Assembly: GCA_964551595.1 (NCBI GenBank)
Contig: CAZKCU010000001.1
Coordinates: 197,321 to 261,320 of the forward strand
Direction of reading: 5' to 3'
Length of the DNA stretch: 64,000 nucleotides
Source: an uncultured Candidatus Saccharibacteria bacterium
GTDB lineage: Bacteria; Patescibacteriota; Minisyncoccia; Minisyncoccales; CAZKCU01
In this document: positions 4,737 through 60,594 of the stretch, in pieces
How positions within the stretch are numbered: the stretch's first letter is position 1
Layout: the number at the start of each line of letters is the position of its first letter
Translations under genes and position numbers: made by a program
The notes under the pieces: generated by a model
Databases searched by the model: none
What the model was told of the DNA's origin: nothing
Seen by the model: the letters and a program-made list of their open reading frames with translations, nothing else

Positions 4737-4745
4737 GAGTTTTTT

Positions 4746-4773
4746 AAAACCCCGCTTTAAAAAGCGGGGTTTT
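4746..4773. terminator. bidirectional rho-independent terminator (aaaaccccgc-tttaaaaa-gcggggtttt)
   Basis: perfect GC-rich stem flanked by A/T runs, between convergent small ORF (+) and tyrS (-). Confidence 0.7.
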
Positions 4774-4787
4774 AAAAAAACGGGGTC

Positions 4788-22552: not shown

Positions 22553-24265
22553 ATGAAAAATCAGGAAATAGCTAAAATATTATATGAGATAGCTCAATAT
22601 CTTGAGATGGAAGGAGTGTCTTTCAAACCCTATGCCTATGAGAAGGCGGCGCTGACTTTGGAAACCCTGGAGGAAGATATTGAAGAAATTTATAAAAAAG
22701 GGAGAATTAAAGTTCTAAAAGATATTCCTGGAATAGGGAAAAGCATTGCTGAGAAAATTGAAGAATATTTAAAAACCGGAAAGATAAAGTATTACCAAGA
22801 ACTTAAGAGAAAAACTCCCTTGAATATCGGAGAATTAGCAGCTGTGGAGGGAATGGGTCCAAAAAAGGCAAAGGTATTATACCAAAAATTAGGGATTAGA
22901 AATTTAAAAGATTTAGAGAAAGCAGCCAGAGCTCACAAAATTGCTCCTCTCTTCGGTTTTGGGGAAAAAACTGAAAAAAATATCTTGGAGGGGATAGCTT
23001 TTTTAAAGAGAAGCAAAGGAAGGTTTCTTTTAGGAGATATTCTCTCGGTCGTTATGGAAGTTCAGGAAAAATTAAAAAGCCTAAAAGAGGTTGAGGAAAT
23101 AAGTCCGGCAGGTTCAGTTAGAAGAATGAAAGAAACTATTGGCGATGTCGATTTTTTGGTAATTTCCAAAAATCCAGAGAAAGTTATGGATTTTTTTGTT
23201 TCTTTACCCGGAGTGATTAAAATTTGGGGCAAGGGCAAAACTAAATCATCGGTTAAAATGAGAGAAGGTTTCGATATGGATATAAGAGTTGTTCCAAGAA
23301 AAAGTTATGGTTCAGCTCTCCAATACTTTACTGGTTCAAAAGAGCATAATATCGTCACCAGAAAAATTGCCATAGCTAAAGGATTAAAACTGAATGAATA
23401 TGGAGTTTTTCGGGGGAAGAAACAGATTGCTGGGAAAAATGAAGAAGAAGTTTATAAAATCTTAGGGATGGCTTGGATACCTCCTGAATTGAGAGAAAAC
23501 CAGGGCGAAATTGAAGCTGCCCTTGAATGGAAATTACCGAAGTTAATTGATTTTAAAGATATTAAAGGGGATTTACATACTCACTCTAAATGGAATGGAG
23601 GTCATAATTCGATTTTGGAAATGGCCGAAACTGCGATGAGAAGAGGATATAGATATTTGGGAATTACTGACCATACTAAATTTCTAAGAATTGAGCACGG
23701 ATTAGACGAGAAAAAGCTGGCCTTACAAAGAAAAGAAATTGACAAATTAAATCAAAAATTCAAAAATTTCAAAATTCTTCAGGGAGCAGAAACAAACATT
23801 TTGAATGATGGCTTAGTAGATATTAGAGATGAATCCCTAAAAAAGTTAGACTATGCTATTGCTGGAATTCACTCAAATATGAAAATGCCAAAAGAGAAAA
23901 TGACAGAAAGAATTATTCAGGCAATGAAAAATCCCTATATTAAAATAATCTCCCATCCAACCGGCAGAATCTTAAAAAGAAGAAATGAATACCAAATTGA
24001 TTTTGATAAAATTTTGAGAGCGGCTAAAGAAACAGGAACAATTTTAGAAATCAATTCTTTTCCTGAAAGATTAGATTTAAACGACCAGAATATTCGTCGG
24101 GCAAAAGAGGCTGAAGTAAAAATGGTAATCAATACTGACGCCCACCACCTGGACCAAATGAGATTTATTGAATTTGGAATTGCCCAAGCCCGCCGCGGCT
24201 GGGCCGAAAAAAAAGATATAATTAATGTCCAACCATTAGAAAAATTATTAAGGTATTTCAAATAA
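22553..24265 (+). CDS. DNA polymerase X family protein with C-terminal PHP domain (PolX)
   Basis: N-terminal Pol beta-like HhH region; GDVDFLV nucleotidyltransferase motif; C-terminal GDLHTHS...HT PHP motifs; 570 aa. Confidence 0.8.
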   Translation: MKNQEIAKILYEIAQYLEMEGVSFKPYAYEKAALTLETLEEDIEEIYKKGRIKVLKDIPGIGKSIAEKIEEYLKTGKIKYYQELKRKTPLNIGELAAVEGMGPKKAKVLYQKLGIRNLKDLEKAARAHKIAPLFGFGEKTEKNILEGIAFLKRSKGRFLLGDILSVVMEVQEKLKSLKEVEEISPAGSVRRMKETIGDVDFLVISKNPEKVMDFFVSLPGVIKIWGKGKTKSSVKMREGFDMDIRVVPRKSYGSALQYFTGSKEHNIVTRKIAIAKGLKLNEYGVFRGKKQIAGKNEEEVYKILGMAWIPPELRENQGEIEAALEWKLPKLIDFKDIKGDLHTHSKWNGGHNSILEMAETAMRRGYRYLGITDHTKFLRIEHGLDEKKLALQRKEIDKLNQKFKNFKILQGAETNILNDGLVDIRDESLKKLDYAIAGIHSNMKMPKEKMTERIIQAMKNPYIKIISHPTGRILKRRNEYQIDFDKILRAAKETGTILEINSFPERLDLNDQNIRRAKEAEVKMVINTDAHHLDQMRFIEFGIAQARRGWAEKKDIINVQPLEKLLRYFK

Positions 24266-30899: not shown

Positions 30900-31466
30900 A
30901 TGCAAAATATTTATTTCATTTTGCGGCATGGTAATCCAGCCTGGAAATATCTGGATATAATTTATCCGGCAGACGAGATGTTTTCTGTGGGATTAAGCCG
31001 GCAGGGAAGAGAACAAATTAGAACCATTACCAAAGACCTGAAAAAACAAAGAATCGATTTGATTCTTTCTTCAGATTATCGGCGCACCAAAGAAACTGCT
31101 CAGATCATTGCCAAATCCCTTGACCTCAAAGTGAGTTACGACAAAAGACTACAAGATCAGAAACGAGGAGCTTATTGTGGTCGTCCCATAGCTGACTTTT
31201 ATCAGGATTTTCCTGATCCGAAAAAAAGATTTAGGATAAAGCCACAAGGTGGAGAGAGCTGGAACGATGTTAGAAGAAGGGTTGTCGATTTTTTGAGAGA
31301 TACAGAAAAGAAATACAAAAACAAAAAAATCTTAATTGTTAGCCATGGCGCCCCTTTATGGTTTTTGGAAGGAGCAGTAAAGGGCTTGGATAATGAGCAA
31401 CTTTTAGAGCAAAAGTTAAACAATACTGGCATAGAGGTTGGCGAACTAAGAAAACTATGTCCATAG
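30900..31466 (+). CDS. histidine phosphatase family protein (phosphoglycerate mutase-like)
   Basis: LRHGNPAW catalytic RHG motif; downstream VSHGAP. Confidence 0.65.
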   Translation: MQNIYFILRHGNPAWKYLDIIYPADEMFSVGLSRQGREQIRTITKDLKKQRIDLILSSDYRRTKETAQIIAKSLDLKVSYDKRLQDQKRGAYCGRPIADFYQDFPDPKKRFRIKPQGGESWNDVRRRVVDFLRDTEKKYKNKKILIVSHGAPLWFLEGAVKGLDNEQLLEQKLNNTGIEVGELRKLCP

Positions 31467-34336
31467 ATTTTTCTAAAATTGAGAAAAAAATCCTAAAATT
31501 TTGGAAAGAGAACAAGATTTTTGAAAAATTACGCCAGAAAAATCAGGGCAAAAAACGCTGGTCATTTTTAGATGGCCCGATTACTGCCAACAATCCTATG
31601 GGAGTTCATCATGCCTGGGGAAGAACCTACAAAGACCTTTTTCAAAGATATAAAGCAATGCAGGGTTTTTGCCAGAGATTTCAAAACGGCTTTGATTGTC
31701 AGGGCTTGTGGGTTGAAGTAGAAGTTGAGAAAGAGCTCGGCTTCCGCAATAAAAAAGATATAGAGAAATACGGCATAGAGAAGTTTGTCAAAAAATGCAA
31801 AGAGAGAGTTGAGAAATATTCGAAAATTCAAACAGAACAGTCAATTAGGCTCGGTCAATGGATGGACTGGCAAAATTCTTATTATACGATGTCTGATGAG
31901 AATAACTATGCTATTTGGCATTTCCTAAAAAAATGCCACAAAGACGGATTTTTATATAAAGGCAGAGATGTAGTTCCATGGTGTCCTCGGTGTGGAACGG
32001 CCATTTCTCAGCATGAAATTTTAACAGAAGAGTATAAAGAATTAACTCACAAATCAATATTTTTCAAGCTACCAGTCCAAAACCTAAAGAAAACTTATTT
32101 TCTTGTCTGGACAACTACTCCCTGGACATTACCTGGTAATGTCGCAATAGCTGTTCATCCTGATTTTGATTATGTAAAAGTAAAAGACAAAAAAGGCAAC
32201 ATTTTTATTTTACTTAAAGAAAAATCTTATTTCATTAAAGATGGAGAAATAATAGAGAAATTTAAGGGCAAGAAATTGAAGGGGTTTAAATACGAAGGGT
32301 TGTTTGACAAATTACCGTTTGTAAAAGAAACCTTAGGTAGCTACAAGCACTCTGTAATTTTGTGGAAGGAGGTAACCCAGGAAGAAGGAACGGGCATTGT
32401 TCATGTGGCGCCCGGCTGTGGTCAAGAGGACTTTCAATTGGCTAAAGAATTTAAACTATCTGTCATTGATTTAACCAATGATGAAAGCAACTATCTAAAG
32501 GGCCTTGGAGAACTGAGTGGCAAGTTTGTTGGCGGAGAAGAAGTAAGAGAATTGATTTTTGAAGATTTAAACCAGAAGGATAGGGTTTTTAAAATTGAGG
32601 ATTACCAACATCGCTATCCAATTTGCTGGCGCTGCCAGTCAGAATTGATTTTCCGTTTGGTTGATGAATGGTATATTTCAATGGCAAAGTTAAGGGAGAA
32701 ACTGATGAAAATTGCCAAAAAAATAAAATGGATTCCTTCCTTTGGTCTGGACAGGGAATTGGATTGGTTAAAAAATATGCAAGATTGGTTAATTTCTAAA
32801 AAACGTTATTGGGGATTAGCTTTACCGATTTATGAATGCCCAGACTGTGGAAACTTTGAGGTAATCGGTTCAAAAAAAGAATTAAAAGAAAAAGCGGTTA
32901 AAGGTTGGCAAGAACTTGAAGGCCATTCTCCTCACCGACCCTGGATAGATAAAGTAAAGATTAAATGTTCCAAATGTGGCAAAATAGTTTCTCGAATTTC
33001 CGATGTTGGTAATCCTTGGCTAGATGCCGGAATTGTGCCTTTTTCTACTATGAAGTATTTTTCTGACCGGGACTTTTGGCAGAAATGGTTTCCGTCTGAA
33101 TTCGTTTGCGAATCTTTCCCGGGTCAATTCAAAAATTGGTTTTATTCCCTTATTGTAATGAGTACTGTATTAGAGGAAGTTGCTCCAGTGAAGACAATCT
33201 TTGGCTACGCAACAGTAGTCGATGAAAAGGGCGAAGAAATGCATAAATCCAAAGGAAATGTTATTTGGTTTGATGAGGCAGTTGAAAAGATAGGGGCTGA
33301 TGTGATGCGTTGGATGTATGTTAAACAAAATCCAGTCTATAATCTAAGGTTTGGCTACAAAATTGCCAAAGAAACCCAAAGAAAACTTTTAACATTATGG
33401 AATAGCTACACCTTTTTTGAGACATATGTCTCAAAAAAGGAAATCCCAAAGCCCAAATCCCAAATCCCAAAACCCAAAAATGTTTTAGATAAATGGATTG
33501 TTTCGCGGCTAAACAGATTAATTGGAGCCGTTATTAAATCTTTAGAAAATTTTGATGCTGCCGGGGCAAGTTCGGCCATTGAGAATTTTTTCATTAATGA
33601 TTTATCTCTTTGGTATATCAGAAGGTCAAGAAAGAGATTTCAGAACCCAAGCAGTCAGAAAGAAAAAGATGAGGCAGTCAGTACTCTTTACTTTGTTCTT
33701 TTAATCCTATCAAAAATGATTGCGCCAATGATGCCGTTCTTTAGTGAAGAAATTTATTTGAATTTAAAAACAAAAAATATGCCTCAATCCGTTCATCTTT
33801 GCGACTGGCCAAAATATTGTGAAAAAGCAATTGACGATAATTTAGAGGAGAAAATGACAAAGGTTCGGGAGATTGTAAATAAGGTTTTAGCTAAAAGAAC
33901 TGAACTTGGAATTAAAGTGAGGCAGCCCTTACGGGGATTAAGAATTGCGAATTATAAATTACGAAGGGAGAAAGAATTACTGGAGTTGATTAAGGACGAG
34001 GTAAATGTAAAAGAAATTACTTTTGGCAAAACATTAAAATTGGATACAAAGATTAGCGAGGAGTTAAAAGAAGAGGGGCAGGTTCGAGAATTTATCCGAC
34101 AGGTTCAGCAACTGCGAAAAAATGCCAAACTTACCCCCAAAGACAAAATTATTATTTATTGTGAGTGCCCAGAGAAATTGAAAAAAGTTTTAGAAAAAAA
34201 TAAAAAAGACATTTTAGCAGAAACCAAAGCCAAAGATTTTCTTTTTGGTAAAAAACCAAAGAAAGTTTTCGACACTGAAAAAGATTTAAAGGTCGACCAA
34301 ACAAAATTATGGTTAGCAATCAACCGAAGCACATAA
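31457..34336 (+). CDS. ileS: isoleucyl-tRNA synthetase
   Basis: 959 aa; HMGH-type and KMSKS motifs, CP1 editing domain, zinc-binding C-terminus; contains in-frame palindrome+short tandem repeat at 33414-33480. Confidence 0.9.
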   Translation: MSIDFSKIEKKILKFWKENKIFEKLRQKNQGKKRWSFLDGPITANNPMGVHHAWGRTYKDLFQRYKAMQGFCQRFQNGFDCQGLWVEVEVEKELGFRNKKDIEKYGIEKFVKKCKERVEKYSKIQTEQSIRLGQWMDWQNSYYTMSDENNYAIWHFLKKCHKDGFLYKGRDVVPWCPRCGTAISQHEILTEEYKELTHKSIFFKLPVQNLKKTYFLVWTTTPWTLPGNVAIAVHPDFDYVKVKDKKGNIFILLKEKSYFIKDGEIIEKFKGKKLKGFKYEGLFDKLPFVKETLGSYKHSVILWKEVTQEEGTGIVHVAPGCGQEDFQLAKEFKLSVIDLTNDESNYLKGLGELSGKFVGGEEVRELIFEDLNQKDRVFKIEDYQHRYPICWRCQSELIFRLVDEWYISMAKLREKLMKIAKKIKWIPSFGLDRELDWLKNMQDWLISKKRYWGLALPIYECPDCGNFEVIGSKKELKEKAVKGWQELEGHSPHRPWIDKVKIKCSKCGKIVSRISDVGNPWLDAGIVPFSTMKYFSDRDFWQKWFPSEFVCESFPGQFKNWFYSLIVMSTVLEEVAPVKTIFGYATVVDEKGEEMHKSKGNVIWFDEAVEKIGADVMRWMYVKQNPVYNLRFGYKIAKETQRKLLTLWNSYTFFETYVSKKEIPKPKSQIPKPKNVLDKWIVSRLNRLIGAVIKSLENFDAAGASSAIENFFINDLSLWYIRRSRKRFQNPSSQKEKDEAVSTLYFVLLILSKMIAPMMPFFSEEIYLNLKTKNMPQSVHLCDWPKYCEKAIDDNLEEKMTKVREIVNKVLAKRTELGIKVRQPLRGLRIANYKLRREKELLELIKDEVNVKEITFGKTLKLDTKISEELKEEGQVREFIRQVQQLRKNAKLTPKDKIIIYCECPEKLKKVLEKNKKDILAETKAKDFLFGKKPKKVFDTEKDLKVDQTKLWLAINRST

Positions 34337-34744: not shown

Positions 34745-35482
34745 ATGTTCATCCATCACAGAACTCAGGGGATAATTATAAAAAAAGAAGATCGGGGGGA
34801 AGCCGACCAGCTTTTTACAATTTATACCAAAGATTTCGGGAAATTAGAGATTTTGGGAAGAGCTATCAGGAAAATCAAATCAAAATTAAGAGCAGGAGCC
34901 GAATTTTTTTATTTATCAGAAGTTGAATTTATTCAGGGGAAAGCCTATAAAACCCTAACCGACGCCATTTTAATTGACAAATTTGAAAATATCAGAAAAG
35001 ATTTAGAGAGATTGAAGATTTGTTATCAGATTTCAGAAGTTTTGGATAATTTAGTCAAAGGCCAAGAACCCGACAAAGACATTTGGAATTTATTAAACGA
35101 AGCTTTTATAAAATTAAATAACTTACAACTTACAACTTACAACTTACAACTAATTTATTACTATTTCTTCTGGAACCTTTTTTCTCTTTTAGGGTTTAAA
35201 CCTGAGCTTTCTACTTGCCCAATTTGCAGAAAGAAACTTTTAGCCGAAACTTTTTATTTTGTACCAAAAGAAGGAGGGGTAGTATGCTGGAGGTGTTTGA
35301 AAGAACTTAGCCCAGAAGAAAAAGAAAGAGTAAAAGAAATAAGCGTAGATACGGTTAAAATTTTAAGAATTTTTCTTTCAAAGAATTGGGAAATATTACC
35401 CAGGCTTAAAATAATAAAAGAAGAGAGAAAAAATCTAAAAGAGATATCAGAACTTTACCTTACTTTTTTAAAAGAAGGCTAA
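34745..35482 (+). CDS. recO: DNA repair protein RecO
   Basis: N-terminal OB fold GIIIKKEDRGEADQLFTIYTKDFGKL; C4 zinc motif CPICRKK...CWRC; contains (acttacaa)x4 in-frame repeat. Confidence 0.7.
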   Translation: MFIHHRTQGIIIKKEDRGEADQLFTIYTKDFGKLEILGRAIRKIKSKLRAGAEFFYLSEVEFIQGKAYKTLTDAILIDKFENIRKDLERLKICYQISEVLDNLVKGQEPDKDIWNLLNEAFIKLNNLQLTTYNLQLIYYYFFWNLFSLLGFKPELSTCPICRKKLLAETFYFVPKEGGVVCWRCLKELSPEEKERVKEISVDTVKILRIFLSKNWEILPRLKIIKEERKNLKEISELYLTFLKEG

Positions 35483-40935: not shown

Positions 40936-41618
40936 GCGCTCTCTATATTATAGGTACTCCAATTGGGAACCTCGAAGATTTATCTTTTAGAGCCCTCCAA
41001 ATTTTAAAGGGGGCTGATTTAATTTTGTGTGAAGACACAAGAGTCACCAAAAAATTATTGAATCATTATCAAATAAAAACTCCCACCCTAAGTTATCATC
41101 AACATTCAAAATTAAAAAAAGTTGAAGAGATTATTCAACTTTTAAAAGAAGGTAAAAATTTGGCCTTGGTTTCTGATGCCGGCACCCCTGGAATTTCCGA
41201 CCCCGGGAATTTATTAATTAATGAAATGATTAATAGATTAAGAAATGAAGTTAAAGTTATTCCGATTCCCGGGCCTTCGGCAGTAACGGCGGCAGCTTCT
41301 ATTTCTGGCTTTCCAACGGATAAATTTATTTTTATGGGTTTCCCGCCAACAAAAAGAAAAAGGAAGAAATTTTTTGAGGAAATTGTAGGATCCAAGTACC
41401 CGGTAATTTTTTACGAATCTCCTTACCGAATCCTAAAAAGCCTTAAAGAATTGGAACTAAAAGCTGAAAGCTGCAAGCTAAAACCTAAAATAATGGTTTG
41501 CCGAGAACTAACTAAAAAATTCGAAACAATTTATCGGGGGGAAATTGAAGAGGTAATAAAAGAAATTAAAAAAAAAGAGATAAAAGGTGAATTTGTGGTT
41601 ATCGTAGCAGGAAAATAG
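40932..41618 (+). CDS. rsmI: 16S rRNA (cytidine1402-2'-O)-methyltransferase RsmI
   Basis: LYIIGTPIGNLEDLSFRALQILKGADLILCEDTRVT tetrapyrrole-methylase-like N-terminus. Confidence 0.8.
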   Translation: MSALYIIGTPIGNLEDLSFRALQILKGADLILCEDTRVTKKLLNHYQIKTPTLSYHQHSKLKKVEEIIQLLKEGKNLALVSDAGTPGISDPGNLLINEMINRLRNEVKVIPIPGPSAVTAAASISGFPTDKFIFMGFPPTKRKRKKFFEEIVGSKYPVIFYESPYRILKSLKELELKAESCKLKPKIMVCRELTKKFETIYRGEIEEVIKEIKKKEIKGEFVVIVAGK

Positions 41619-42125: not shown

Positions 42126-43574
42126 ATGTCAACAAAAAACAAAAAATTCTATATCTCCACTAGTATTCCTTATACTAATGCGCCACCCCATATTGGTTTT
42201 GCCTTAGAGATAATTCAAGCAGATGTTTTGGCTCGTTATCATCATTCATTGGGCGAAGACGCCTTTTTCTTAACGGGTACGGACGAGCATGGATTAAAAA
42301 CTAAAAGGGCAGCAGAGAAGACTAATAAAACGCCGAAAGAGTTTGCTGATGAGATATCAGAAAAGTTTAGAAAATTAAAAACAACTTTAAATCTTTCTAA
42401 TAATGATTTTATTAGAACCACCGACAAAAAAAGACATTGGCCAGCAGTAAAGAAGGTTTGGTTAAAATTAAAAGAAAATGGGGAGATCTATAAAAAGAAC
42501 TATAGAGGTTTTTATTGTGCCGATTGTGAAGCTTTTGTTACTAAAAAAGATTTAGTTGATGAAAAATGTCCTATTCATCAAAAGAAAGTAGAGTTAGTTG
42601 AGGAAGAAAATTATTTTTTCCGCCTTTCAAAATATTCTCAAAAGATAAAAGAAATAATTAAAAAGGATAAAATAAGGATTATTCCGGAATCAAGGAAAAA
42701 TGAAATATTGGCTATTATCAGACAAGGATTGGAAGATATTAGTTTTTCAAGAGTAAAAGAAAAGTATTTAGGAATTCCGGTTCCTAATGATCCTACTCAA
42801 TTTTTATACATATGGCCAGATGCCCTCACTAACTATATTTCAGCTATTGGTTATTCAAAGAATAGTGAGAGGTTCAAAAAATACTGGCCCGCTGATGTCC
42901 ATTGTATCGGTAAAGATATTGTAAGATTTCACGCTTTGATTTGGCCGGCAATACTTTTATCCCTTAATTTAAAATTACCAAAAACCATATTTGTTCACGG
43001 TTTCATTACGGTTGATGGGAAAAAAATGTCAAAATCTTTGGGAAATGTCATTAATCCCTTTGAACTGGTAAAAAAATACGGGACTGATACCGTTCGCTAT
43101 TTTCTTTTACGGGAGATTCCACCAACTGAAGATGGCGATTTTACTTATGAGAAATTTGAAGAGAGATATAATGCTGATTTAGCAAGCGGATTAGGAAATT
43201 TGGTGGCGAGGGTTTTAACAATGGCAGAGAAGATAAATCCAAATAACAAAATCCAAATGTCAAATCAAATCCAAAATTCAAATATCAAAAAAGAAATTGA
43301 CAAAACGTGGGGAAATTATAAAAAGGCATTAGAGGAGTTTAAGTTTAATGAGGCTTTAATTTTTATCTGGGAATTAATTAGTTTTTGCGATAGATATATT
43401 GAAAAAGAAAGACCTTGGGAAGAAAGTAAAAAGCAAAAAGAAGTTATCAATAATCTATTATTGGCTATCGATGAAATAGCAAAATTGTTGCAGCCATTTT
43501 TACCAGAAACTTCCGAAAAAATATTTAAGCAATTAAAAACTAAGAAAAGTAAGTCTTTGTTCCCAAGAATTTAG
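42126..43574 (+). CDS. metG: methionyl-tRNA synthetase
   Basis: 482 aa; PHIGFA (HIGH-type) and KMSKS motifs, zinc knuckles CADC...CPIH; in-frame AT-rich repeat 43234-43290. Confidence 0.85.
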   Translation: MSTKNKKFYISTSIPYTNAPPHIGFALEIIQADVLARYHHSLGEDAFFLTGTDEHGLKTKRAAEKTNKTPKEFADEISEKFRKLKTTLNLSNNDFIRTTDKKRHWPAVKKVWLKLKENGEIYKKNYRGFYCADCEAFVTKKDLVDEKCPIHQKKVELVEEENYFFRLSKYSQKIKEIIKKDKIRIIPESRKNEILAIIRQGLEDISFSRVKEKYLGIPVPNDPTQFLYIWPDALTNYISAIGYSKNSERFKKYWPADVHCIGKDIVRFHALIWPAILLSLNLKLPKTIFVHGFITVDGKKMSKSLGNVINPFELVKKYGTDTVRYFLLREIPPTEDGDFTYEKFEERYNADLASGLGNLVARVLTMAEKINPNNKIQMSNQIQNSNIKKEIDKTWGNYKKALEEFKFNEALIFIWELISFCDRYIEKERPWEESKKQKEVINNLLLAIDEIAKLLQPFLPETSEKIFKQLKTKKSKSLFPRI

Positions 43575-45534: not shown

Positions 45535-48051
45535 ATGAAATATAATCCCCAAAAAATAGAACGAAAATGGCAAATATTTTGGGAGAAAATAGGAATTTTT
45601 GAAGCGAAAGATTTTTCTAAAAAGGCAAAGAGCTATATTTTAGTTGAGTTTCCTTATCCATCTGGCGAAGGGCTTCATGTTGGGCATTGCCGACCTTATA
45701 TTGCCTTGGATATAGTCAGCCGCAAAAGAAGAATGGAGGGTTTTAATGTTTTGTTTCCTATGGGCTGGGATGCTTTTGGATTGCCGACCGAAAACTATGC
45801 TATTAAAACCGGGATTTATCCCCGAGAAGCTACCAGGAAAAACATCTCTTTTTTTAAGGATCAGCAAAAAAGTATAGGTCTGTCTTTTGATTGGAGCCGC
45901 GAAATTAACACTACTGATCCGGCCTACTATAAATGGACTCAATGGATATTTTTGCAGCTTTTTAAAAAAGGCTTAGCTTATAAAAGCAAAATGCCAATTA
46001 ACTGGTGCCCGGCTTGTAAAATTGGCCTGGCTAATGAGGAAGTGGTTGATGGAAAATGCGAAAGATGCGGGGAAAAAGTTGAGAGAAGAGAAAAAGAACA
46101 GTGGATGCTGAAAATAACTAGGTATGCTGAAAGACTAATTCAGGATTTAGACAAAGTTGATTACCCGGAGAAAGTTAAGATTCTCCAGAAAGATTGGATA
46201 GGGAAATCAGAAGGCTGGGAAATAACTTTTAAGATTAAAGATTCAAGTTCAAAGATTCAAGTATTCACTACTCGGGCAGACACTCTTTTTGGAGCTACTT
46301 ATTTGGTGGTAGCTCCTGAGCATCCAATAATTCAAAATCTGAAATCTAAAATCCTAAATCTTAAATCTGTAGAGAAATATATTGAAGAATCCAAGAAAAA
46401 GATTGAGAGAGAAAGAATTAGTGAAATTAAAGAGAAAACTGGAATAGAAGTTAAAGGAATAAAAGCAGTCAACCCGGTCAAGTTGAGACAAATCCCCATT
46501 TTTTTAGCAGATTATGTTTTGATGCACTATGGCACCGGGGCAATTATGGCTGTGCCAACTCACGACCAAAGAGATTTTGATTTCGCCAGACAATATAATT
46601 TACCGATGATTGAGGTGATTAAACCTTTTAAAGAAAAAAAAGAATTACCAAAAGAAGTCGGAATAGTGGTTTCCAACGGTAGATTTAAAAAAGCTTATGA
46701 AGGTGAAGGATATTTGATTAATTCTGGAAGATTTAATGGAATAGGCTCAGAAATTGCCAAAGAAAGAATTGGTGAGTGGTTAGCAAGAAAAAGTTTAGCA
46801 AAAAAAACCGTCCATTATAAATTAAGAGATTGGATTTTTTCTCGGCAACGTTATTGGGGAGAGCCAATTCCAATGATAAAGTGTGAGAGATGTGGTTGGT
46901 TGGCAGTTTCAGAAAAAGATTTACCGGTTAAACTTCCTCGAGTTAAAAAATATCAACCGACTGAAACTGGCGAATCCCCATTGGCAGCGGTTAAAAATTG
47001 GGTAAATGTCAAATGCCCTAAATGCGGCGGTCCTGCCAGAAGAGAAACCGATGTTATGCCAAACTGGGCTGGTTCTAATTGGTATTTTCTTCGCTATTGT
47101 GATCCCCAAAATGATAAAAAATTAGCCAATCCAAAATTACTTAAATATTGGATGCCAGTAGGCTGGTATAATGGAGGCATGGAGCATACTACTTTGCATC
47201 TTTTGTATTCTCGTTTTATCTATAAATTTTTATGGGACATTGGGGCTGTGCCAAAATCTGTTGGCTCTGAACCATATAAGAAACGAACTTCTCATGGTAT
47301 GGTTCTTGGCGAGGGAGGAATTAAAATGTCAAAATCCAAAGGTAATGTCATTAACCCCGATAATGTTGTTAAAAGTTACGGAGCTGACACAATGAGAGTT
47401 TATGAAATGTTTATGGGACCTTTTGAGCAAATGATTTCCTGGGACAGCAAAGGAGTAAGGGGAGTAAGGAGATTTCTGGGAAAAGTTTGGGAACTTTTTG
47501 AAAAATCCCAAATCCCAAATCCTAAATCCCAATCAAATCCCAAATCTCAATTTCCAAATCCAAAACTTAAAAAACTTTTACATAAGACTATTAAGAAAGT
47601 ATCAGAGGATATTGAACATTTAAAGTTTAACACAGCGGTAAGCTCTTTAATGAAATTTTGTAATGCTTGGCAAGAAAATGTTCAGGGGCTGAAGAGAGAA
47701 GATTTTAAAAATTTCCTAAAGATTTTTTCTCCTTTTGCTCCTCATATGGCAGAAGAACTTTGGCGAAAATTAAAACCTAAAAAAGACCTTAAAGATTATG
47801 AGAAAAGAGATTCAATTTTCTCTCAGCCCTGGCCCAAATATGACTCAAAATTAATTGAAGAGGAAAAAATAACTTTAGTTATTCAGGTCAATGGTAAAGT
47901 TCGTGATAGAATAGAAGTAATGGCAGATATAAAAGAAGAAAAGGCCAGAGAGTTAGCTTTGGCCCAAGAAAAAATCAAAAAATGGATAGGAGGAAAAAAG
48001 ATAAAAAGAGTTATTTTTGTTCCCGGGAAACTTATAAATATAGTAATATAA
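45535..48051 (+). CDS. leuS: leucyl-tRNA synthetase
   Basis: 838 aa; HVGH and KMSKS motifs, CP1 editing domain; two in-frame short tandem repeat insertions (46334-46378, 47503-47570). Confidence 0.9.
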   Translation: MKYNPQKIERKWQIFWEKIGIFEAKDFSKKAKSYILVEFPYPSGEGLHVGHCRPYIALDIVSRKRRMEGFNVLFPMGWDAFGLPTENYAIKTGIYPREATRKNISFFKDQQKSIGLSFDWSREINTTDPAYYKWTQWIFLQLFKKGLAYKSKMPINWCPACKIGLANEEVVDGKCERCGEKVERREKEQWMLKITRYAERLIQDLDKVDYPEKVKILQKDWIGKSEGWEITFKIKDSSSKIQVFTTRADTLFGATYLVVAPEHPIIQNLKSKILNLKSVEKYIEESKKKIERERISEIKEKTGIEVKGIKAVNPVKLRQIPIFLADYVLMHYGTGAIMAVPTHDQRDFDFARQYNLPMIEVIKPFKEKKELPKEVGIVVSNGRFKKAYEGEGYLINSGRFNGIGSEIAKERIGEWLARKSLAKKTVHYKLRDWIFSRQRYWGEPIPMIKCERCGWLAVSEKDLPVKLPRVKKYQPTETGESPLAAVKNWVNVKCPKCGGPARRETDVMPNWAGSNWYFLRYCDPQNDKKLANPKLLKYWMPVGWYNGGMEHTTLHLLYSRFIYKFLWDIGAVPKSVGSEPYKKRTSHGMVLGEGGIKMSKSKGNVINPDNVVKSYGADTMRVYEMFMGPFEQMISWDSKGVRGVRRFLGKVWELFEKSQIPNPKSQSNPKSQFPNPKLKKLLHKTIKKVSEDIEHLKFNTAVSSLMKFCNAWQENVQGLKREDFKNFLKIFSPFAPHMAEELWRKLKPKKDLKDYEKRDSIFSQPWPKYDSKLIEEEKITLVIQVNGKVRDRIEVMADIKEEKARELALAQEKIKKWIGGKKIKRVIFVPGKLINIVI

Positions 48052-48060
48052 TTAAAAAAA

Positions 48061-49700
48061 TGGAGGAGATTTTATTACAAAAAGCTGGCAAAAAAATGAT
48101 ACTTTTGGGTAACGAAGCCATTTGTCGGGGTGCTTTGGAAGCAGGAGTTCAATTTGTTTCTACTTATCCTGGAACCCCGGCTTCAGAAATTGGAAATACC
48201 TTTTTTAAACTTTCTCAATCAGGAAAATATAAAGGTTATTTTGAGTTTTCTACCAATGAAAAAGTAGCTTTGGAAGCAGGAATTGGAGCTTCTTTTTCTG
48301 GTTTGAAAACTTTGGTGGCAATGAAAAACTTTGGCTTAAATGTCTGTTCAGATTCTTTACTTCCATTTTTATATACTGGTGCAAAAGGTCCGACTGTAAT
48401 TGTTGCTGCCGATGACCCTTCCTGCCACAGTTCAGCTCAATCTGAAGAAAATAGCCGAGCTTTTGCTTTTTTAGCCCATATCCCCGTTTTAGAACCTTCA
48501 GATCCTCAGGAATGCAAAGATTTTGTTAAGTTAGGTTTCAAAATTTCAGAAAAATTTCAAATTCCAGTAATGATAAGAACTACAACAAGAGTTGCTCACC
48601 AGCGAGCAATAGTAAAATTGGGAAAGATTACGAAACCCGGCAACGTAGTGGGAAAGTTTATTAAAGAGCCAAAGAGATTTGTTACCATGCCCCCGAGAGT
48701 ATTGGAGATGAAAAAAGAGCTGCTTAAAAAAATCAAACAAATCAGAAAATTTTCCGAAAAAACCCAAATAAATAAGATAAGTCTGTCAGTATCAGATACC
48801 GACAGACAGAAAATAGGAATAATTAGTTCAGGGGTTACCCATTTATATGTAATGGAGGCAGTAAAGGAACTAAAATTAAATTTGCCAGTTTTGAAGCTGG
48901 GATTTTTTTATCCTTTGCCAAAAGAGAAAATAAAGAATTTTATTAAAAATTTTAAAAAAGTTCTGATTGTTGAAGAATTAGAGCCGTATTTAGAAAGAGA
49001 AATAGAAAGATTAGCAAAAGATGTCAATCCGAAACTTCAAATTTTCGGCAAAGGTCTGGTTCCCGAAGTTGGCGAACTAAAACCCGAAATCGTTACCTTG
49101 GCCATCGTCAAGTTTGCTAATTGTAAATTGAAAATTGAAAATTGGAAATTCCAAATTCCAAAACGTTCTCCTCAGCTTTGTCCAGGTTGTCCTTATTGGT
49201 TAGTTTTTGGGGCAGTTAAAAAAGCAGTAGATCCCAAAAAGGTAATTTTTGGGGGAGACATTGGTTGTTATATGTTAGCAGGTCTCCCTCCTCACTTTAT
49301 CCAAGATTATCTCTCTTGTATGGGGTCATCTATAGGAATTGCCCACGGGATTAAAAAAGCGACTGGCCAAAAATTAATTACTTTTATTGGTGACTCAACT
49401 TTTTTTCATGCTGGTATCCCAGCTTTGATTAATACGGTTTTTAATAAATCCAATCCTTTAATTATCGTAATGAACAACCAAACCACTGCTATGACCGGAC
49501 ATCAGCCTCATCCCGGGGCGCCAGCCAAACCAGATGGAATAAAGATTGAAAATATTGTCAAAGCTTGCGGTGTAAAGAATTTAAAAGTAATTGACCCTAT
49601 CAAACAAAAAGAGTTTATTAATACAGTTAAAAAATTTTTAAATAAAAAAGAGGTTTCAGTAATTATAGCTCGTCGTCCATGCATCCAGATAAAAAAATGA
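48061..49700 (+). CDS. iorA: indolepyruvate/2-oxoacid:ferredoxin oxidoreductase alpha subunit (TPP-binding)
   Basis: GNEAICRGALEAG N-terminus, TPP motif GGDIGCYMLAG; start set to ATG 48061 rather than 47982, which overlaps leuS; carries palindromic element P2 in frame. Confidence 0.7.
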
Positions 49701-51554: not shown

Positions 51555-52128
51555 TCAAAAAAATTTTAAAAAAACAATAAATAAAACTATAGAATCGATA
51601 AAAAAGGGCGAAGTAATAGCTTGCCCAACTGACACAGTTTATGGTTTAATAGCCGATGCGACAAACGAGAAGGCAGTAAAAAAGCTTTTTAAAATAAAAA
51701 AGAGATCAAGTCTCAAACCTGTCCCTATTTTTGTTAAAGATATGAAAATGGCGAAAAAGTCTGCCCATATCAACAAAAAACAAGAAGAATTTTTAAAAAA
51801 AGTTTGGCCGGGGAAAATAACAGTAGTTTTAAAAAGGAGAAAGAAAAAAATAAAATTATTTGGAGCAGCTCCAGATACAATTGCTCTCCGAATTCCAAAA
51901 TATAAATTAATTAATGAATTGCTTAAAAAACTAAACTGTCCCTTAACCGGCACCTCAGCTAACATTTCAGGGGAACCTGCTTCAACAAAAATAGGAGAAG
52001 TAACTTCTCAATTTGAAAAACAAAAAATCCAGCCTGATTTAATTTTAAATGCCGGAAACTTGCCAAAAAGCAAACCGTCAATAGTTTTAGATTTAACGAC
52101 TTCGCTACCTAAAATTTTAAGACCTTAA
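51535..52128 (+). CDS. tsaC: L-threonylcarbamoyladenylate synthase (TsaC/YrdC/Sua5 family)
   Basis: IACPTDTVYGLIADA and ALRIP motifs of YrdC fold. Confidence 0.7.
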   Translation: MEVLKVNQKNFKKTINKTIESIKKGEVIACPTDTVYGLIADATNEKAVKKLFKIKKRSSLKPVPIFVKDMKMAKKSAHINKKQEEFLKKVWPGKITVVLKRRKKKIKLFGAAPDTIALRIPKYKLINELLKKLNCPLTGTSANISGEPASTKIGEVTSQFEKQKIQPDLILNAGNLPKSKPSIVLDLTTSLPKILRP

Positions 52129-55774: not shown

Positions 55775-56304
55775 ATTTGGATTTCTTTTTGTTTCAACAA
55801 ATTAATGGTTTTACCGGGAAGTGGCTATGGTTCGATACTCTGAATATTTATTTTGCTGAACATTTCGAACACGTTCTGTGGTTTATTCTTTTTTTATTTT
55901 TACTGAAAAACTTTAAGAAATACTGGCCGATGATAATCCAGGCTTTTGGGGCAGCAATTTTAGCAAGATTGGTTATTGTTAATTTTATTCGCTGGCTTTG
56001 GCAAAGACCCAGGCCATTTATTGAAAACAATGTTAATTTGCTCCTATCTCATAAGGCAGCTTCTTTTCCTTCTGGTCACGCTGCCTTTTATTTCGCTATA
56101 TCTACAATTGTTTATGTTTATAATAAAAAAGCCGGCATTGGATTTTTTCTTGCCAGTTTTTTAATTTCTATTTCCCGAGTGGTTTGTGGAATTCACTGGC
56201 TATCTGACATTTTGGCCGGAGCTTTGATTGGAATTTTTTCAGGATGTGTAATTATTCTTTTTTTTCAGCGATTTTTCTCAACCTCATCGAAACAAGCACT
56301 ATAA
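55771..56304 (+). CDS. PAP2 family phosphatase (undecaprenyl-diphosphatase-like)
   Basis: KAASFPSGHAAFYFA phosphatase motif 2 and SRVVCGIHWLSD motif 3. Confidence 0.7.
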   Translation: MNLDFFLFQQINGFTGKWLWFDTLNIYFAEHFEHVLWFILFLFLLKNFKKYWPMIIQAFGAAILARLVIVNFIRWLWQRPRPFIENNVNLLLSHKAASFPSGHAAFYFAISTIVYVYNKKAGIGFFLASFLISISRVVCGIHWLSDILAGALIGIFSGCVIILFFQRFFSTSSKQAL

Positions 56305-56714: not shown

Positions 56715-57260
56715 ATGATAGATGAGTTAATTGATATTTGTGATGAAAACAATAATTTACTTGGAATCCAAAGGGCGTGGAGTGAGGTACATAAAAACGG
56801 GCTATGGCACAGGGCTTCACATATTTGGATATACAATTCCAAAGGAGAAATTCTTCTTCAATTAAGAGCTAAAGGCAAAGAACTTTATCCTGATATGTGG
56901 GATATTTCGGCAGCAGGCCAAGTTAAGGCCGGCGAAGAGCCAATTATTTCTGGATTAAGAGAAGTTGAGGAAGAAATTGGACTATCAGTCAAAGAAAGGG
57001 ATTTAGAATTTTTTAAGGTCAAGAAACACAAATCAATTTTCAGAGATATAAAGGACAATGAATTTTGTTATGTTTACTTTTTAAAATTCGATGGCGATAT
57101 TAAAAAATTAAAATTACAAGATGAGGAAGTTCAATCAGTCCAATTTCTTCCTCTTGAGAAAATTGAAGAAGAATTAAAAACAAATCCCGAAAAATATGTG
57201 CCTCACGGAGATTATTGGTTTGAAGTAATAAATAAAGTTAAACAAAAACTAAATCTTTAA
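56715..57260 (+). CDS. NUDIX hydrolase
   Basis: Nudix box GEEPIISGLREVEEEIGL. Confidence 0.7.
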   Translation: MIDELIDICDENNNLLGIQRAWSEVHKNGLWHRASHIWIYNSKGEILLQLRAKGKELYPDMWDISAAGQVKAGEEPIISGLREVEEEIGLSVKERDLEFFKVKKHKSIFRDIKDNEFCYVYFLKFDGDIKKLKLQDEEVQSVQFLPLEKIEEELKTNPEKYVPHGDYWFEVINKVKQKLNL

Positions 57261-57287
57261 CAAAAGCCCTGGGAAGCCTTCCCGGAG

Positions 57288-57908
57288 GTGCTATTTTTTA
57301 TGATACAAATCAAAGAATGTAAAGAGCCATTAGTTGATATAAAAAAATTATGTCCTGATATAATAATTGATTTAGGCACAAAAAGGATGCAAAGAGAAAA
57401 AACTGCCTACCTGAGAAAGAAGGTGGCCGAAATGATTTGTCGAGCCGAGAAAGAACTGCCGGAGGGAACAACATTTATTATCGGAGACGCTTGGAGGCCA
57501 AAATATATTCAAAAGGAAAGAATCAATTGGTTTATTAATTATTTTTCTAAAAAGTACCCAAATTGGTCTAAGAAGAAAATTCTTAATGAGGTTGAAAAAT
57601 ATGTTGCTTTATCTGAAGGAAAATATGCTTCCGGACATATGACCGGTGGAGCAGTAGATTTGAGATTATGGAAAAATGGTAGAAAAATACCTATGAAATG
57701 TTCTAAATTAACTTACCAAGAAAACGCCAAATCATTTCAGCCTAAGTTACCAAGACATATTCAAAAAAACAGAGAGATAATGTTTAACGCACTAAAAAAA
57801 GCTGGTTTATCCAACTATCCAAAAGAGTATTGGCATTGGTCATATGGTGATATCTGGTGGGCCAAAAGGAACAAAGAAAAAATTGCCATTTATGGAGTGA
57901 TAAATTAA
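57288..57908 (+). CDS. D-alanyl-D-alanine dipeptidase (VanX/DdpX, M15D family)
   Basis: zinc-ligand motifs SGHMTGGAVDL and EYWHWSYGD. Confidence 0.65.
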   Translation: MLFFMIQIKECKEPLVDIKKLCPDIIIDLGTKRMQREKTAYLRKKVAEMICRAEKELPEGTTFIIGDAWRPKYIQKERINWFINYFSKKYPNWSKKKILNEVEKYVALSEGKYASGHMTGGAVDLRLWKNGRKIPMKCSKLTYQENAKSFQPKLPRHIQKNREIMFNALKKAGLSNYPKEYWHWSYGDIWWAKRNKEKIAIYGVIN

Positions 57909-58002
57909 ATTGGGAAGCCATCTCGAAAGTACTGTTGATTTTTTTAAGTAAAACCCGCCCAAGTATTATCCGAGCGGGTTATTGTCTATGGTGACGTTCT
58001 AA

Positions 58003-58374
58003 TTATGAGACTTTAAGGCCCTCAACTTTTGCAGGGTCGAGTTTGCTACCATTTGGTGGAAACAGAATTAATAATTCACCGCTGGTAAAAGAGCAAAGGC
58101 TGAGCCGGTCATTACCGATTTCTGAAACGCCATAAAGTTTCAGATTTCTTACATAGCCATCAGAGGCAAATTTATCTTCCTTTTTCCAGTTAATCCACCA
58201 TGGCCATAACCGATAACGTTTTCCTTTCGCTATCCATGCAAACTTGACCAGAAACATATTATTCTCAATGGTAGCACTCTTAATCGGGCCTCGATATAGA
58301 TAACCTTCGTTTTTATTCTGAATTTCCATATCTCCCTCCACAAATTCTGCAACTTTTTCATTGGTAAGGTTCAT
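58003..58374 (-). CDS. hypothetical protein (123 aa)
   Basis: ORF only; followed on the minus strand by hairpin aacccgc...gcgggtttt at 57945-57975. Confidence 0.35.
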   Translation of the reverse strand: MNLTNEKVAEFVEGDMEIQNKNEGYLYRGPIKSATIENNMFLVKFAWIAKGKRYRLWPWWINWKKEDKFASDGYVRNLKLYGVSEIGNDRLSLCSFTSGELLILFPPNGSKLDPAKVEGLKVS

Positions 58375-58416
58375 AACTACCTCCTTTCTTTGTTATAGTG
58401 TTTCCAAATTCTTATG

Positions 58417-58500
58417 TGCCGGAGGTGGGACTTGAACCCACAAGCCCTTGCGGACAGTAGATTTTGAATCTACCCTGTTTTCCAATTTCAGCACTCCGGC
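58417..58500 (-). tRNA. tRNA-Leu (anticodon CAA), class II with long variable arm; CCA not encoded
   Basis: minus-strand read GCCGGAG...GGTAGA-TTCAAAA-TCTAC...GTCCGCAAGGGCTTGT...GTGGGTTCAAGTCCCAC-CTCCGGC-A; 7-bp acceptor, T-loop GGTTCAAGTCC. Confidence 0.8.
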
Positions 58501-58515
58501 AAGTACTTTATTCTT

Positions 58516-60594
58516 TTATTTCACCATATTTTTCTCGAAATTGCAATCTTTGTCGGAACACTTAATTTTCCTCCCTTTTTCTACCAAAAGTGAGCCGCAT
58601 TTTGGGCATTTTTTTCCTGTTGGTTTGTCCCATAAGGCAAAATCACATTTTGGCCACTGATTGCAGCCATAAAAGATTTTTTTCTTTTTAGTTCTTTTTT
58701 CAACCACCTCGCCTTTTTTACATTTAGGGCATTTAATTCCTAATTTTATTTTTTCAAAAGATTCAGTGTATTTACATTTAGGAAAGCGAGAGCAGCCATA
58801 GAATTTTCCGAATTTCCCCAGCCGAATTAAAAGTGGAGCTTTGCATTTTGGACAGATTTTTTCGGTTTTCTCAGTTAAAACCTTTTTTGAAACCTCCTGA
58901 TATTTTTGTTTCAGGTTTTCTTCAAAAGGATTGTAAAACTCTCTTATAACCGGAACCCATTTTTCTTTCCCTTGGGCAATTTTATCTAAATCTTCTTCCA
59001 TTAGGGCGGTAAATTTAATATCAACAATTTTTGGGAAGTGCTTTACCAGGATATCGTTTACTACTGTCCCAATTTCAGTTGGTTGAAAGCGCTTCTCTGT
59101 ATTTTTCTCAATATAATTTCTTTCTTGAACTGTAGATAAAATGGGGGCATAAGTTGATGGCCTACCAATTCCATTTTCTTCCAGGGTCTTAATTAAAGTA
59201 GCTTCACTGTACCGAGGAGGAGGTTGAGTAAAGTGCTGGGAGGGAATTAATTTTATTAGTTCCAAGATTTCATTTATTTCCAAAGACGGCAACTCGGTTT
59301 CCTCGAATTTCATCGGGTAAACTTTCAAAAATCCATCAAATTTCAGAATCTGCCCCGTTGTTCTTAAAATATAACTTTTAACTTTTAATTTTTGATTTTT
59401 AACTTTTGATTCGATATCGACTTTAGACGAATCGAAGCTCGCCTTTGCCATCTGACAAGCTATAAATCGCCGCCAAATTAAATCGTAAAGACGAAACTGC
59501 CTGTCGTCTAATTTAGCTTGAATTTTTAATTTCTCTGGAGCTTTCTCAGCAAAAGTAGGCCTTATGGCTTCATGAGCTTCCTGGGCCCCCTTGGTTTTTG
59601 TTTTATATCTTCTCAAAAAACCAGCCCAATATTCCTTGCCATAATTCTCAATGATAAATTTTCTGGTAGCAAATAAAGATTGGTCAGAAAGATTTAAGGA
59701 ATCGGTTCTGTGATAGGTCGTAAGTCCTTTCTCATAAAGTTGCTGGGCAACTTGCATTGTCATTTTAGCTGGCCAATGGAATCTCCCCCAGGATTCTTGT
59801 TGGAGAGTGCTGGTGGTAAATGGTGGTAGAGGATTTCTTTTTACTTCTTTCTTTTCGATATTGATTACTTTGTATTCAGTTTTTTCTAAATCTTTAACAA
59901 TTTTATCTGCTTCTTTTTTAGTTTTAATTCCCAGCTTGGGAATTGTTTTTTTATCCCTTTTAATTAAAATAGCTTCAAACAGAGGCTCGTCCTCTGTTTT
60001 TTTTAGTTGGGCGGCGATTGTCCAGTATTCTTGGGGTACAAAATTTTTAATTTCTCTTTCTCTTTCTACAACCAGACGAACTGCTACTGACTGAACTCTT
60101 CCAGCTGACAGGCGTCGAGCCACTTTTTTCCACAAAAAAGGGGATAATTTATAACCAACAATTCTATCCAAAATTCTTCTTGTTTGCTGGGCATAGACCA
60201 GATTTAAATCAATTTTCCTTGGGTTTTTGAGAGCTTCCTCAATTGCTGATTTTGTAATCTCATGAAAGACAATTCTTTGGTAAGGTTTTTTGCCATTTAG
60301 ATTTAAAATCTTGGTCAAATGCCAAGATATTGCTTCTCCTTCTCTATCCTCGTCAGTGGCTAAAATAACTGTTTTTGTTTTTTCCGCTTCTTTTTTTAAA
60401 ATATTTACATTTCTTCTGGCTTTAGGAGGAATAATATATTTTGGTTCGAAATTGTTTTCTACATCAACGCCAAATTCAGCCTTAGGCAAATCTCTGATGT
60501 GACCATAGGAAGAAAGAACCCGATATTTAGGGCCTAAAAATCCTTGAAGCGTTTTTGATTTCGTCGGTGACTCAACTACTACGATTAATTGCAT
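58516..60594 (-). CDS. topA: DNA topoisomerase I
   Basis: 692 aa; Toprim [15 protein letters not shown], active-site Tyr region, three C-terminal C4 zinc ribbons; contains in-frame repeat 59374-59413. Confidence 0.9.

Follow-up and report, generated by a model that had tools for sequence, protein, structure and literature searches.

Among prokaryotic simple-sequence repeats with units of 4-11 nucleotides (nt), a period of 7 is in excess, which is patchy across phyla and for which polymerase slippage has been proposed; units that are multiples of three are the ones likeliest to be found in genes (Mrazek, Guo and Shah 2007, to the extent covered in PMC4692102 and PMC4679880). The polymerase-footprint hypothesis is the only published idea that was found for a 7-nt register (PMC4692102, PMC4679880). 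The subject of this work is a set of in-frame arrays of 7-nt units (heptamers) in a stretch of 64,000 nt, here called the window, from an uncultured Candidatus Saccharibacteria bacterium (contig CAZKCU010000001.1, positions 197,321 to 261,320), above all in the genes of the isoleucyl-, methionyl- and leucyl-tRNA synthetases (IleRS, MetRS, and LeuRS). The tracts are probably heptanucleotide simple-sequence repeats that represent a lineage-wide mutational feature filtered by selection, and not a device of the synthetases. The prokaryotic heptanucleotide excess, the intergenic G-quadruplex (G4) heptamers, and the TAACTGA repeats are already known; the in-frame arrays of Patescibacteria are a new variant.

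Like the heptanucleotide long simple-sequence repeats of prokaryotes, the arrays consist of head-to-tail 7-nt units, here in 4.6-9.4 copies, and an excess of period 7 is found here, too. They differ in that the copy number is invariant between close strains and varies only between species, and in that non-triplet arrays lie in frame in essential genes at constant length, with a different unit at orthologous loops. Rickettsia palindromic elements are dispersed, selfish in-frame insertions of 100-150 bp that add length. They share with the arrays that repeated DNA is tolerated in frame at surface positions of conserved proteins, whereas the arrays are short, locally seeded, mostly length-neutral, and without common flanks.

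GGGAATC repeats from Xanthomonas, GGGGA(T/C)T repeats from Nostoc, and the cyanobacterial short tandemly repeated repetitive (STRR) sequences are mostly intergenic, near the ends of open reading frames (ORFs), and under-represented in coding DNA (PMC4692102). For the G4 heptamers, the published location criterion is an intergenic position less than about 50 bp from an ORF end. The (GGGATTT)n sequences described here resemble the Xanthomonas and Nostoc heptamers in harboring one G3 tract per unit with 4-nt loops and in preferring about four units, and as with these and the STRR sequences, related species have repeats of different length and sequence at conserved positions. Unlike the G4 heptamers, they are located in coding DNA, and the units of most sister arrays are not G4-capable. 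TAACTGA repeats of Beggiatoaceae, cyanobacteria, and some Bacteroidetes have one dominant unit and lie mostly upstream of start codons, for which a translational regulation has been proposed; rare “reverse” copies in ORFs read LSVISYQ in variable surface loops (PMC4679880). They are likewise direct repeats of heptamers (2-6 copies, with strains that differ by indels in steps of 7 nt), and the LeuRS gene of a related locus (L008, 14484-14523) carries (TCAGTTA)x4, the reverse complement, with the peptide LSVISYQ. In contrast to them, many units occur here, mostly inside genes. Borg tandem repeats (PMC9879509) are also perfect or near-perfect in ORFs, fast-evolving, and translated into low-complexity peptides, but the period here is 7, which is no multiple of three, and the hosts are essential housekeeping genes of a bacterial chromosome. 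Literature searches yielded no description of essential Patescibacteria genes pervaded by in-frame heptamer arrays and none of length-neutral loop overwriting or of unit turnover at orthologous sites.

The synthetase tracts and the loops they occupy

The window has a GC content of about 35%. By MetRS, its closest relative in the genome collection is a metagenome-assembled genome (MAG) of Candidatus Nealsonbacteria (71%), and an IleRS cluster with the same label is 90% identical to the IleRS of the window; the taxon labels of the MAGs used here are unreliable. The three synthetase genes and their repeats, as delimited by translation, Pfam, and Tandem Repeats Finder (TRF), are the following.

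31457-34336, + strand: ileS (IleRS, 959 aa); translation; Pfam tRNA-synt_1 at aa 11-625, Anticodon_1 at aa 678-826
33411-33440, + strand: perfect 30-bp palindrome, CCTTTTTTGAGACAT directly followed by ATGTCTCAAAAAAGG; two 15-nt arms, 100% complementary, no spacer
33441-33478, + strand: IleRS linker array, (AAATCCC)x5.4; TRF period 7, 90% matches, score 62
42126-43574, + strand: metG (MetRS, 482 aa); translation; Pfam tRNA-synt_1g, Anticodon_1 from aa 387
43235-43290, + strand: MetRS linker array, degenerate AAATCCA/AATATCA; TRF period 14, 4.2 copies, 77% matches, score 63
45535-48051, + strand: leuS (LeuRS, 838 aa), a hot-spot gene for arrays; translation, Pfam
46231-46261, + strand: LeuRS site A (beta-hairpin after WIGxSEG), weak AAGATTA periodicity; TRF 70% matches
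46335-46369, + strand: LeuRS site B (after APEHPII), (AAATCTG)x5; TRF 82% matches
47452-47469, + strand: 9-nt direct duplication GGAGTAAGG (GVRGVR) in leuS; TRF period 9, 2 copies
47503-47565, + strand: LeuRS C-terminal linker array, (AAATCCC)x9.4, interrupted; TRF 74% matches, score 70

An earlier note on this DNA had described the repeats as insertions of one type at the same position of three synthetases. Its quoted DNA, peptides, and coordinates in ileS, leuS, and metG are present and in frame according to translations and TRF, as are the second LeuRS repeat and the 9-nt duplication. The common position is also borne out: the tracts take up aa 661-675 in IleRS, 657-680 in LeuRS, and 369-389 in MetRS and end at the start of Pfam Anticodon_1 (aa 678, 681, and 387, respectively), which places all three at the junction between the catalytic and the anticodon-binding domain. 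The repeat unit has to be corrected, however, from the 9-nt AAATCCCAA to a period of 7 (AAATCCC), as given by TRF and lag analysis. Since three units make up 21 nt, translation passes through all three phases of the array and gives a repeat of 7 aa; AAA TCC CAA ATC CCA AAT CCC thus yields KSQIPNP. The IleRS array translates as KEIPKPKSQIPKPKN and the array at 47503-47565 in LeuRS as KSQIPNPKSQSNPKSQFPNPK. Matches to CCCAAATCCCAAA with at most two mismatches occur 14 times in the window, compared to 5.3 expected, and none of 100 shuffles reaches 14. The 9-nt duplication GGAGTAAGG lies outside the heptamer system. As an observation apart, CCCAAAT at 33441-33478 and 47503-47530 fits the slippery form X_XXY_YYZ of -1 ribosomal frameshifting, in the right phase at every third unit.

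A net insertion is ruled out for four of the five synthetase tracts, which show no net length change in alignments with relatives and solved structures. The IleRS tract aligns nearly gap-free to the Pro/Lys-rich linker ANLDRPDLKNPPPPEKRPE of Thermus thermophilus IleRS (1ile); the modal linker length among 120 homologues is 17 aa, and the ancestral ...IPKSKN end is held in common. In MetRS, the tract and the KYFDGxVP-type loop of 80 orthologues are equal in length, and the mid-LeuRS tract (site B) aligns without gaps to the xNLKxKIxNxKE of its relatives. Compared to these, the C-terminal LeuRS tract is the only one that is lengthened, by 8 aa relative to the closest relatives, and it aligns to Escherichia coli LeuRS (3zgz-type chains) with one gap of 1 residue. 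A lineage-specific insertion domain of class Ia aminoacyl-tRNA synthetases was rejected as well, as IleRS and LeuRS are near gap-free against solved structures. Judged by these sequence comparisons, the tracts appear to overwrite tolerant loops of the same length and are mostly not insertions. Of the insertion claimed earlier, only the C-terminal LeuRS tract is left, and the proposed extended Pro/Lys-rich linker turns out to be, for the most part, an ancestral linker replaced at equal length. For IleRS, a distant linker of equal length and Pro/Lys-rich composition, which the earlier note had named as evidence against an insertion, is found in T. thermophilus.

Selection on the peptide would keep the arrays as flexible, hydrophilic, Pro/Lys-rich linkers or as new disordered segments, as in Borg elements, in which tandem repeats reportedly give rise to disordered regions (PMC9879509). 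KSQIPNP-type peptides are indeed hydrophilic and proline-rich, and the corresponding linker of T. thermophilus IleRS is Pro/Lys-rich, too. In the AlphaFold (AF2) model of LeuRS, with a mean predicted local distance difference test (pLDDT) score of 73.5, aa 661-672 are predicted as a loop with pLDDT<50 between the helices 638-659 and 676-694. Among the listed matches of a metagenome scan (see below), 66 of 120 contigs have (AAATCCC)n translated as KSQIPNP, and 29 of 120 have it in the opposite orientation. This explanation is nevertheless improbable. The linkers are not lengthened, arrays are also located in a beta-hairpin and a helix-turn segment that are confidently modelled (pLDDT 87-92), and the translation of some arrays is hydrophobic (for instance, IFNFQFSIF and KFLISNFQFLI). 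Arrays are also found in non-coding DNA, at about 2.6 times the coding density per base. The period of 7 nt in the DNA is left unexplained, and a unit of 3n nt would serve a peptide better.

Heptamer arrays in the window, in Patescibacteria, and in other taxa

Arrays with at least 4 copies and at least 85% lag identity occur five times in the window at period 7 and are absent at the periods 4-6 and 8-14 and from shuffles. Besides the synthetase genes, the following genes of the window carry heptamer arrays.

3632-3662, + strand: YebC/TACO1-family gene, weak ATTGAAG periodicity; TRF 70% matches; Pfam
35120-35151, + strand: recO, perfect (AACTTAC)x4.6; TRF 100% matches; Pfam RecO_N/RecO_C
41460-41490, + strand: RsmI-like TP_methylase gene, degenerate AAAGCTG/CTAAAAG type; TRF, Pfam, translation
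49119-49162, + strand: 2-oxoacid:ferredoxin oxidoreductase gene, (AAATTGA) followed by (AAATTCC); TRF, Pfam, translation
59372-59411, - strand: topA, AAAGTTA/AAAATCA (coding strand); TRF period 7, 5.1 copies, 86% matches; Pfam Toprim/Topoisom_bac
62894-62919, - strand: Mfd/TRCF-like gene, weak CAATTAG-type array; TRF 3.7 copies, 84% matches; Pfam UvrB_inter, CarD_TRCF_RID, DEAD

All heptamer arrays of the window are internal to ORFs. An acquisition specific to the synthetases, as had been supposed, does not hold, since in-frame arrays are also found in RecO, the oxidoreductase, TopA, the RsmI-like gene, and dozens of families elsewhere. In the oxidoreductase gene, AAATTGA occurs twice and is replaced by AAATTGG exactly where TGA would be in frame, which makes the avoidance of stops visible. 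The longest ORF of this gene and the 3' end of leuS have 70 nt in common (47982-48051); gene callers place the start at 48060 instead (L001 coordinates). The sole non-heptamer array of the window is a 15-nt repeat, GAAGAAACTCCTGCA x6.4, that encodes (EETPA)n in a small acidic ORF (4560-4736) and is followed by a terminator-like perfect hairpin with 19-nt arms (4740-4779). The cumulative GC skew has its maximum at about 58 kb (57000-59000), where the gene orientation flips from + to -, a possible replication landmark; a coding-strand bias of the arrays is therefore inseparable from a replication-strand bias.

For comparison, 80 MetRS-anchored loci were fetched with one genome per species; a few genes serve as anchors for all of the related DNA. 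The periods 4-12 were compared between the window, 28 related loci, and 48 control loci. Period-7 arrays abound in the Patescibacteria loci. The 48 loci from other taxa, which include genomes with 25-35% GC, have almost no period-7 arrays, and other periods are absent everywhere. AT-richness as a simple cause is thereby ruled out. The related Patescibacteria DNA (468 kb) contains 103 exact 7-mers in at least two copies (32 expected) and 14 in at least three copies (0 expected); in 884 kb from other taxa, the former occur 68 times (78 expected) and the latter once. A period-specific process creates and homogenises 7-nt arrays of about 4-5 copies at many places. A tolerant detector finds 54 arrays in 532 kb, about one per 10 kb, 45 of which lie within open frames of at least 120 aa that hold 92.9% of the bases; such a mild depletion from coding DNA is what purifying selection predicts. 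In the related DNA, leuS accounts for 18 of 51 arrays in 6.8% of the sequence, at six recurrent sites (p=3e-9, a value that is inflated if arrays are inherited, as orthologous arrays are not independent).

The metagenome scan covered one unit only, as exact (AAATCCC)x4 and hence at 28 nt or more, and returned at least 120 contigs with a GC content of 0.32-0.70. For the listed contigs below 50% GC, 20 ORFs were tested, and in all 20 the AAATCCC array is in frame and the family is a conserved one; the families include LeuRS (L117), IleRS at the same junction (L170), DnaN, LigA, TsaD, TrmD, MnmA, Map, HolB, and MoaA. On the contigs among the matches listed, heptamer arrays of other units reach 15-17 per 100 kb, and arrays with a period of 5, 6, 8, or 9 are almost absent. 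Richness in heptamer arrays is an organism trait that is also found outside Patescibacteria. A quantisation of the (AAATCCC)n lengths in steps of 21 nt was not seen among the listed matches of at least 28 nt, which decay in steps of about 7 nt from 31-32 nt. Among perfect runs, 13 arrays fall at 28-34 nt (4.0-4.9 units), few have 3.x units, and none exceeds 34 nt. Base composition together with freedom from stops accounts for the choice of units only partially, as A-rich hydrophilic units rank high and AAATCCC does not; 14 of the observed units have a stop in at least one phase, and these occur solely as interrupted arrays.

Several observations were made alongside in the metagenome contigs (L092-L211). 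Among the matches listed, (AAATCCC)x4 is also present in many contigs with 60-70% GC, and eight loci have AAATCCC and GGGATTT arrays less than 400 nt apart as inverted pairs, with an apparent translation of the GIWDLGF type. In L170 (1454-5020), a His_Phos_1 domain (aa 508-677) is embedded in the synthetase sequence of an IleRS open frame of 1189 aa; the window has His_Phos_1 as a gene of its own (30900-31466), and this gene and the start of ileS overlap.

The wide occurrence of one unit could indicate that ready-made AAATCCC arrays were spread between loci or genomes by ectopic gene conversion or by a small mobile element. AAATCCC is found in both ileS and leuS, units close to it occur in metG and the oxidoreductase gene, and it lies in frame in all 20 tested families of other contigs, including the IleRS junction (L170) and LeuRS (L117). 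The length of 28-34 nt would, in our own estimate, be close to the minimum for homologous pairing. However, dispersal is quite improbable, because element structures and common flanks are missing from the flanking DNA, most sites show no net insertion, and on the contigs with AAATCCC, arrays of many other units are almost as numerous. Within one genome, units resemble each other no more closely than units of different genomes do (2.50 versus 2.67 mismatches, p=0.15), which speaks against the “mobile” microsatellite of the earlier note. The ileS array, moreover, grows from an ancestral seed, ATCCCAAAATCTAAAAAT, that is common to L091. Units at the same site in different genomes differ by 2.0 mismatches compared to 2.7 at different sites, and this likeness points to local seeding or shared ancestry.

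Turnover between species and constancy among strains

In the species compared (L089, L090, and L091), the proteins are 86-93% identical and the arrays differ. The ileS array is a perfect (AAATCCC)x4.4 in L090, where the palindrome is also found. In L091, it is absent at identical linker length, with about 20 differences within 36 nt; the array of the window extends from the ATCCCAAAATCTAAAAAT seed that both have in common. Units of the MetRS linker in relatives are AATTTTC, AAAATCC, and AAAACTT (L005, L012, and L031 have heptamers other than that of the window), and those of the LeuRS C-terminal linker are AAAATCC plus AAAACCC. At LeuRS site B, the relatives have AAATCTC, AAAATTG, and AAAATTA; the lag-7 identity is 28/42 in the window, 27-29 in L005, L008, and L016, and 13-21 in the others, and L089 has an unrelated sequence of equal length without an array. 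Clear arrays are present at LeuRS site A in L008, L012, L005, and L014.

The loop of RecO contains AACTTAC in the window and, identically, in L089, CAACTAC in L008, and AAATTGG in L005, while L090 has a TNTCAAT array with the same total length as in the window at 90% nt identity across the gene. The identity between the window and L089 was discarded as evidence of selection, as it is not significant (the chance of no change is about 0.1 at 93% nt identity). In L089, the RsmI-like loop has 3 additional codons and an unrelated sequence, and the oxidoreductase site has 18 nt more (two units plus 4 nt), with TGA kept out of frame. In-frame length changes between related species often amount to 7 aa. 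Such 7-aa steps can be seen among 120 LeuRS homologues: site A is 8, 15, 22, or 29 aa long (also 19 and 26), the C-terminal linker has modes of 21 and 28-29 aa, and a further site, D, is 17 aa long in 97 sequences and 24 aa long in 2 array-like ones.

Among strains, the arrays are constant. The identical LeuRS protein is present on 7 contigs, six of which were fetched (five samples from ENA, JGI, and Logan) and are 99.5-99.99% identical to the window; none of the six has an indel in any array. Strain variants within the 90% protein clusters are of equal length, and no frameshifted or length-variant alleles were found among them, so that the length polymorphism proposed as a check was sought and not found. 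The only single-nucleotide polymorphism in any array among strains is G/T at 33451 in ileS, which leads to K665N, the sole aa difference between two IleRS variants. Strain L087 (JGI 3300028837) lacks 51655-51918 and 55989-56061 of the window; the former comprises 264 nt within a Sua5/YrdC-family gene, whose called product has 109 aa compared to 197 aa here.

Phase-variable contingency loci were excluded as a class, given the host genes (aminoacyl-tRNA synthetases, RecO, TopA) and the lack of frameshifted or length-variant alleles in these comparisons. Mis-assembly of low-complexity repeats does occur, but an assembly or sequencing artefact, which the earlier note had named as a way to overturn its finding, is hardly credible in view of the same LeuRS protein on 7 contigs, the six contigs from five samples without array indels, and an array length of 30-60 nt that is shorter than a sequencing read.

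The palindrome that adjoins the ileS array had been given as 24 bp. It is real and perfect, but it is longer than stated, with 30 bp. It codes for the conserved TFFETYVSKK and depends on a specific set of synonymous codons; as RNA, it is predicted to form a 13-bp hairpin (-18.6 kcal/mol, z=-5.4). L090 has the palindrome with 1 mismatch, and it is absent from L091, L005, L008, and L010. Template switching can turn quasi-palindromes perfect, and the ileS palindrome looks like a quasi-palindrome that was made perfect.

Alternatively, the arrays could be functional nucleic-acid elements, either as a G4 of the template-strand (GGGATTT)n or as heptamer-wise sites for a single-strand-binding protein, e.g. 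a cold-shock protein; in ileS, the 30-bp hairpin and the array might jointly affect transcription, translation, or replication. The minus strand of the IleRS array has five G3 tracts with 4-nt loops, for which G4-aware folding predicts a quadruplex, and in LeuRS four G3 tracts with loops of 4-11 nt give the tract number of a G4. The G-rich heptamers GGGAATC and GGGGAYT form G4 and favour four units (PMC4692102), similar to the 4.0-4.9 units of the perfect arrays here, and CspB binds with one protein per heptamer (PMC4679880). The recurrence of exact (AAATCCC)x4 over the GC range of the metagenome contigs and the codon choice and stable predicted hairpin of the palindrome would also fit. It is unlikely, though, that such a function maintains the arrays. 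Most units (AACTTAC, AAATTCG, AAAATTG, AATTTTC, and others) are not G4-capable, orthologous sites have different units or no array, and the arrays lie within ORFs and not at ORF ends like the published G4 heptamers. The palindrome is missing from L091, whose IleRS is 89% identical.

Origin of the arrays and consequences for conserved proteins

Arrays that survive in genes keep the frame, are free of in-frame stops, roughly keep the length of the loop, and encode a tolerable peptide. As a result of this selection on frame, stops, and loop length, arrays gather where the surface of conserved proteins is hypervariable. The junction that precedes the anticodon-binding domain of class Ia synthetases is one such segment, which explains the “same position” in IleRS, LeuRS, and MetRS. 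The generating step would be strand slippage or template switching in a 7-nt register. In essential genes, viable changes would be restricted to steps of +/-21 nt, to length-neutral re-homogenisation, or to both, and the outcome would be a concerted evolution in which the unit is uniform within an array and different between species. The slippage-prone microsatellite under in-frame selection that was proposed earlier comes close to the best explanation; taken as a whole, the earlier observation is partly confirmed and its interpretation partly supported.

Several points weigh against a mutational repeat filtered by selection as the complete account. A slippage of one unit is a frameshift and would be lethal here, yet most arrays match the replaced sequence in length, so the process must be more complex than plain slippage. 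No copy-number polymorphism is seen among strains at 99.9% identity, and the arrays are thus not hypermutable on that timescale. Neutral slippage alone would lead one to expect neither the clustering of perfect arrays at 28-34 nt with none longer nor the third of all arrays that LeuRS carries, although this LeuRS statistic is inflated by the non-independence of arrays at orthologous sites. It is likewise insufficient for the over-representation of the AAATCCC family, which is C-rich in a genome of 35% GC. The period of 7, the ceiling of about 4.5 units, the preference for LeuRS, and the abundance of AAATCCC are left uncovered.

A more specific mechanism can be put forward tentatively, as a possibility that is rather doubtful. 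In some bacterial lineages, replication or repair might involve an activity that copies DNA with a constant register of 7 nt, via template switching or filler synthesis, and that repeatedly overwrites permissive loops of essential proteins with short arrays from neighbouring seeds, usually in a length-neutral manner; the ileS palindrome might be a product of the same process. The window encodes a PolX-family DNA polymerase (22553-24265, + strand; HHH_8, DNA_pol_B_thumb, PHP) that is syntenic in the strain and species relatives L085 and L090. It is a possible lead as a candidate for templated or slippage synthesis, without a link to the arrays.

Non-triplet microsatellites are expected to be barred from essential genes, because most changes in copy number destroy the reading frame. 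Here, they are common in synthetases, RecO, TopA, and many other core genes of an entire lineage. If this holds genome-wide, conserved proteins acquire new peptide sequence through a strong mutational process that is specific to one period, and the unexplained excess of 7-nt repeats in prokaryotes gains a testable handle. “Lineage-specific insertions” and low-complexity loops of Patescibacteria can then be scars of repeats and not adaptations, and the alignment and phylogeny of marker proteins such as LeuRS are affected. An activity that copies in a 7-nt register, if true, would be a previously undescribed mutational engine for the turnover of loops in conserved proteins.

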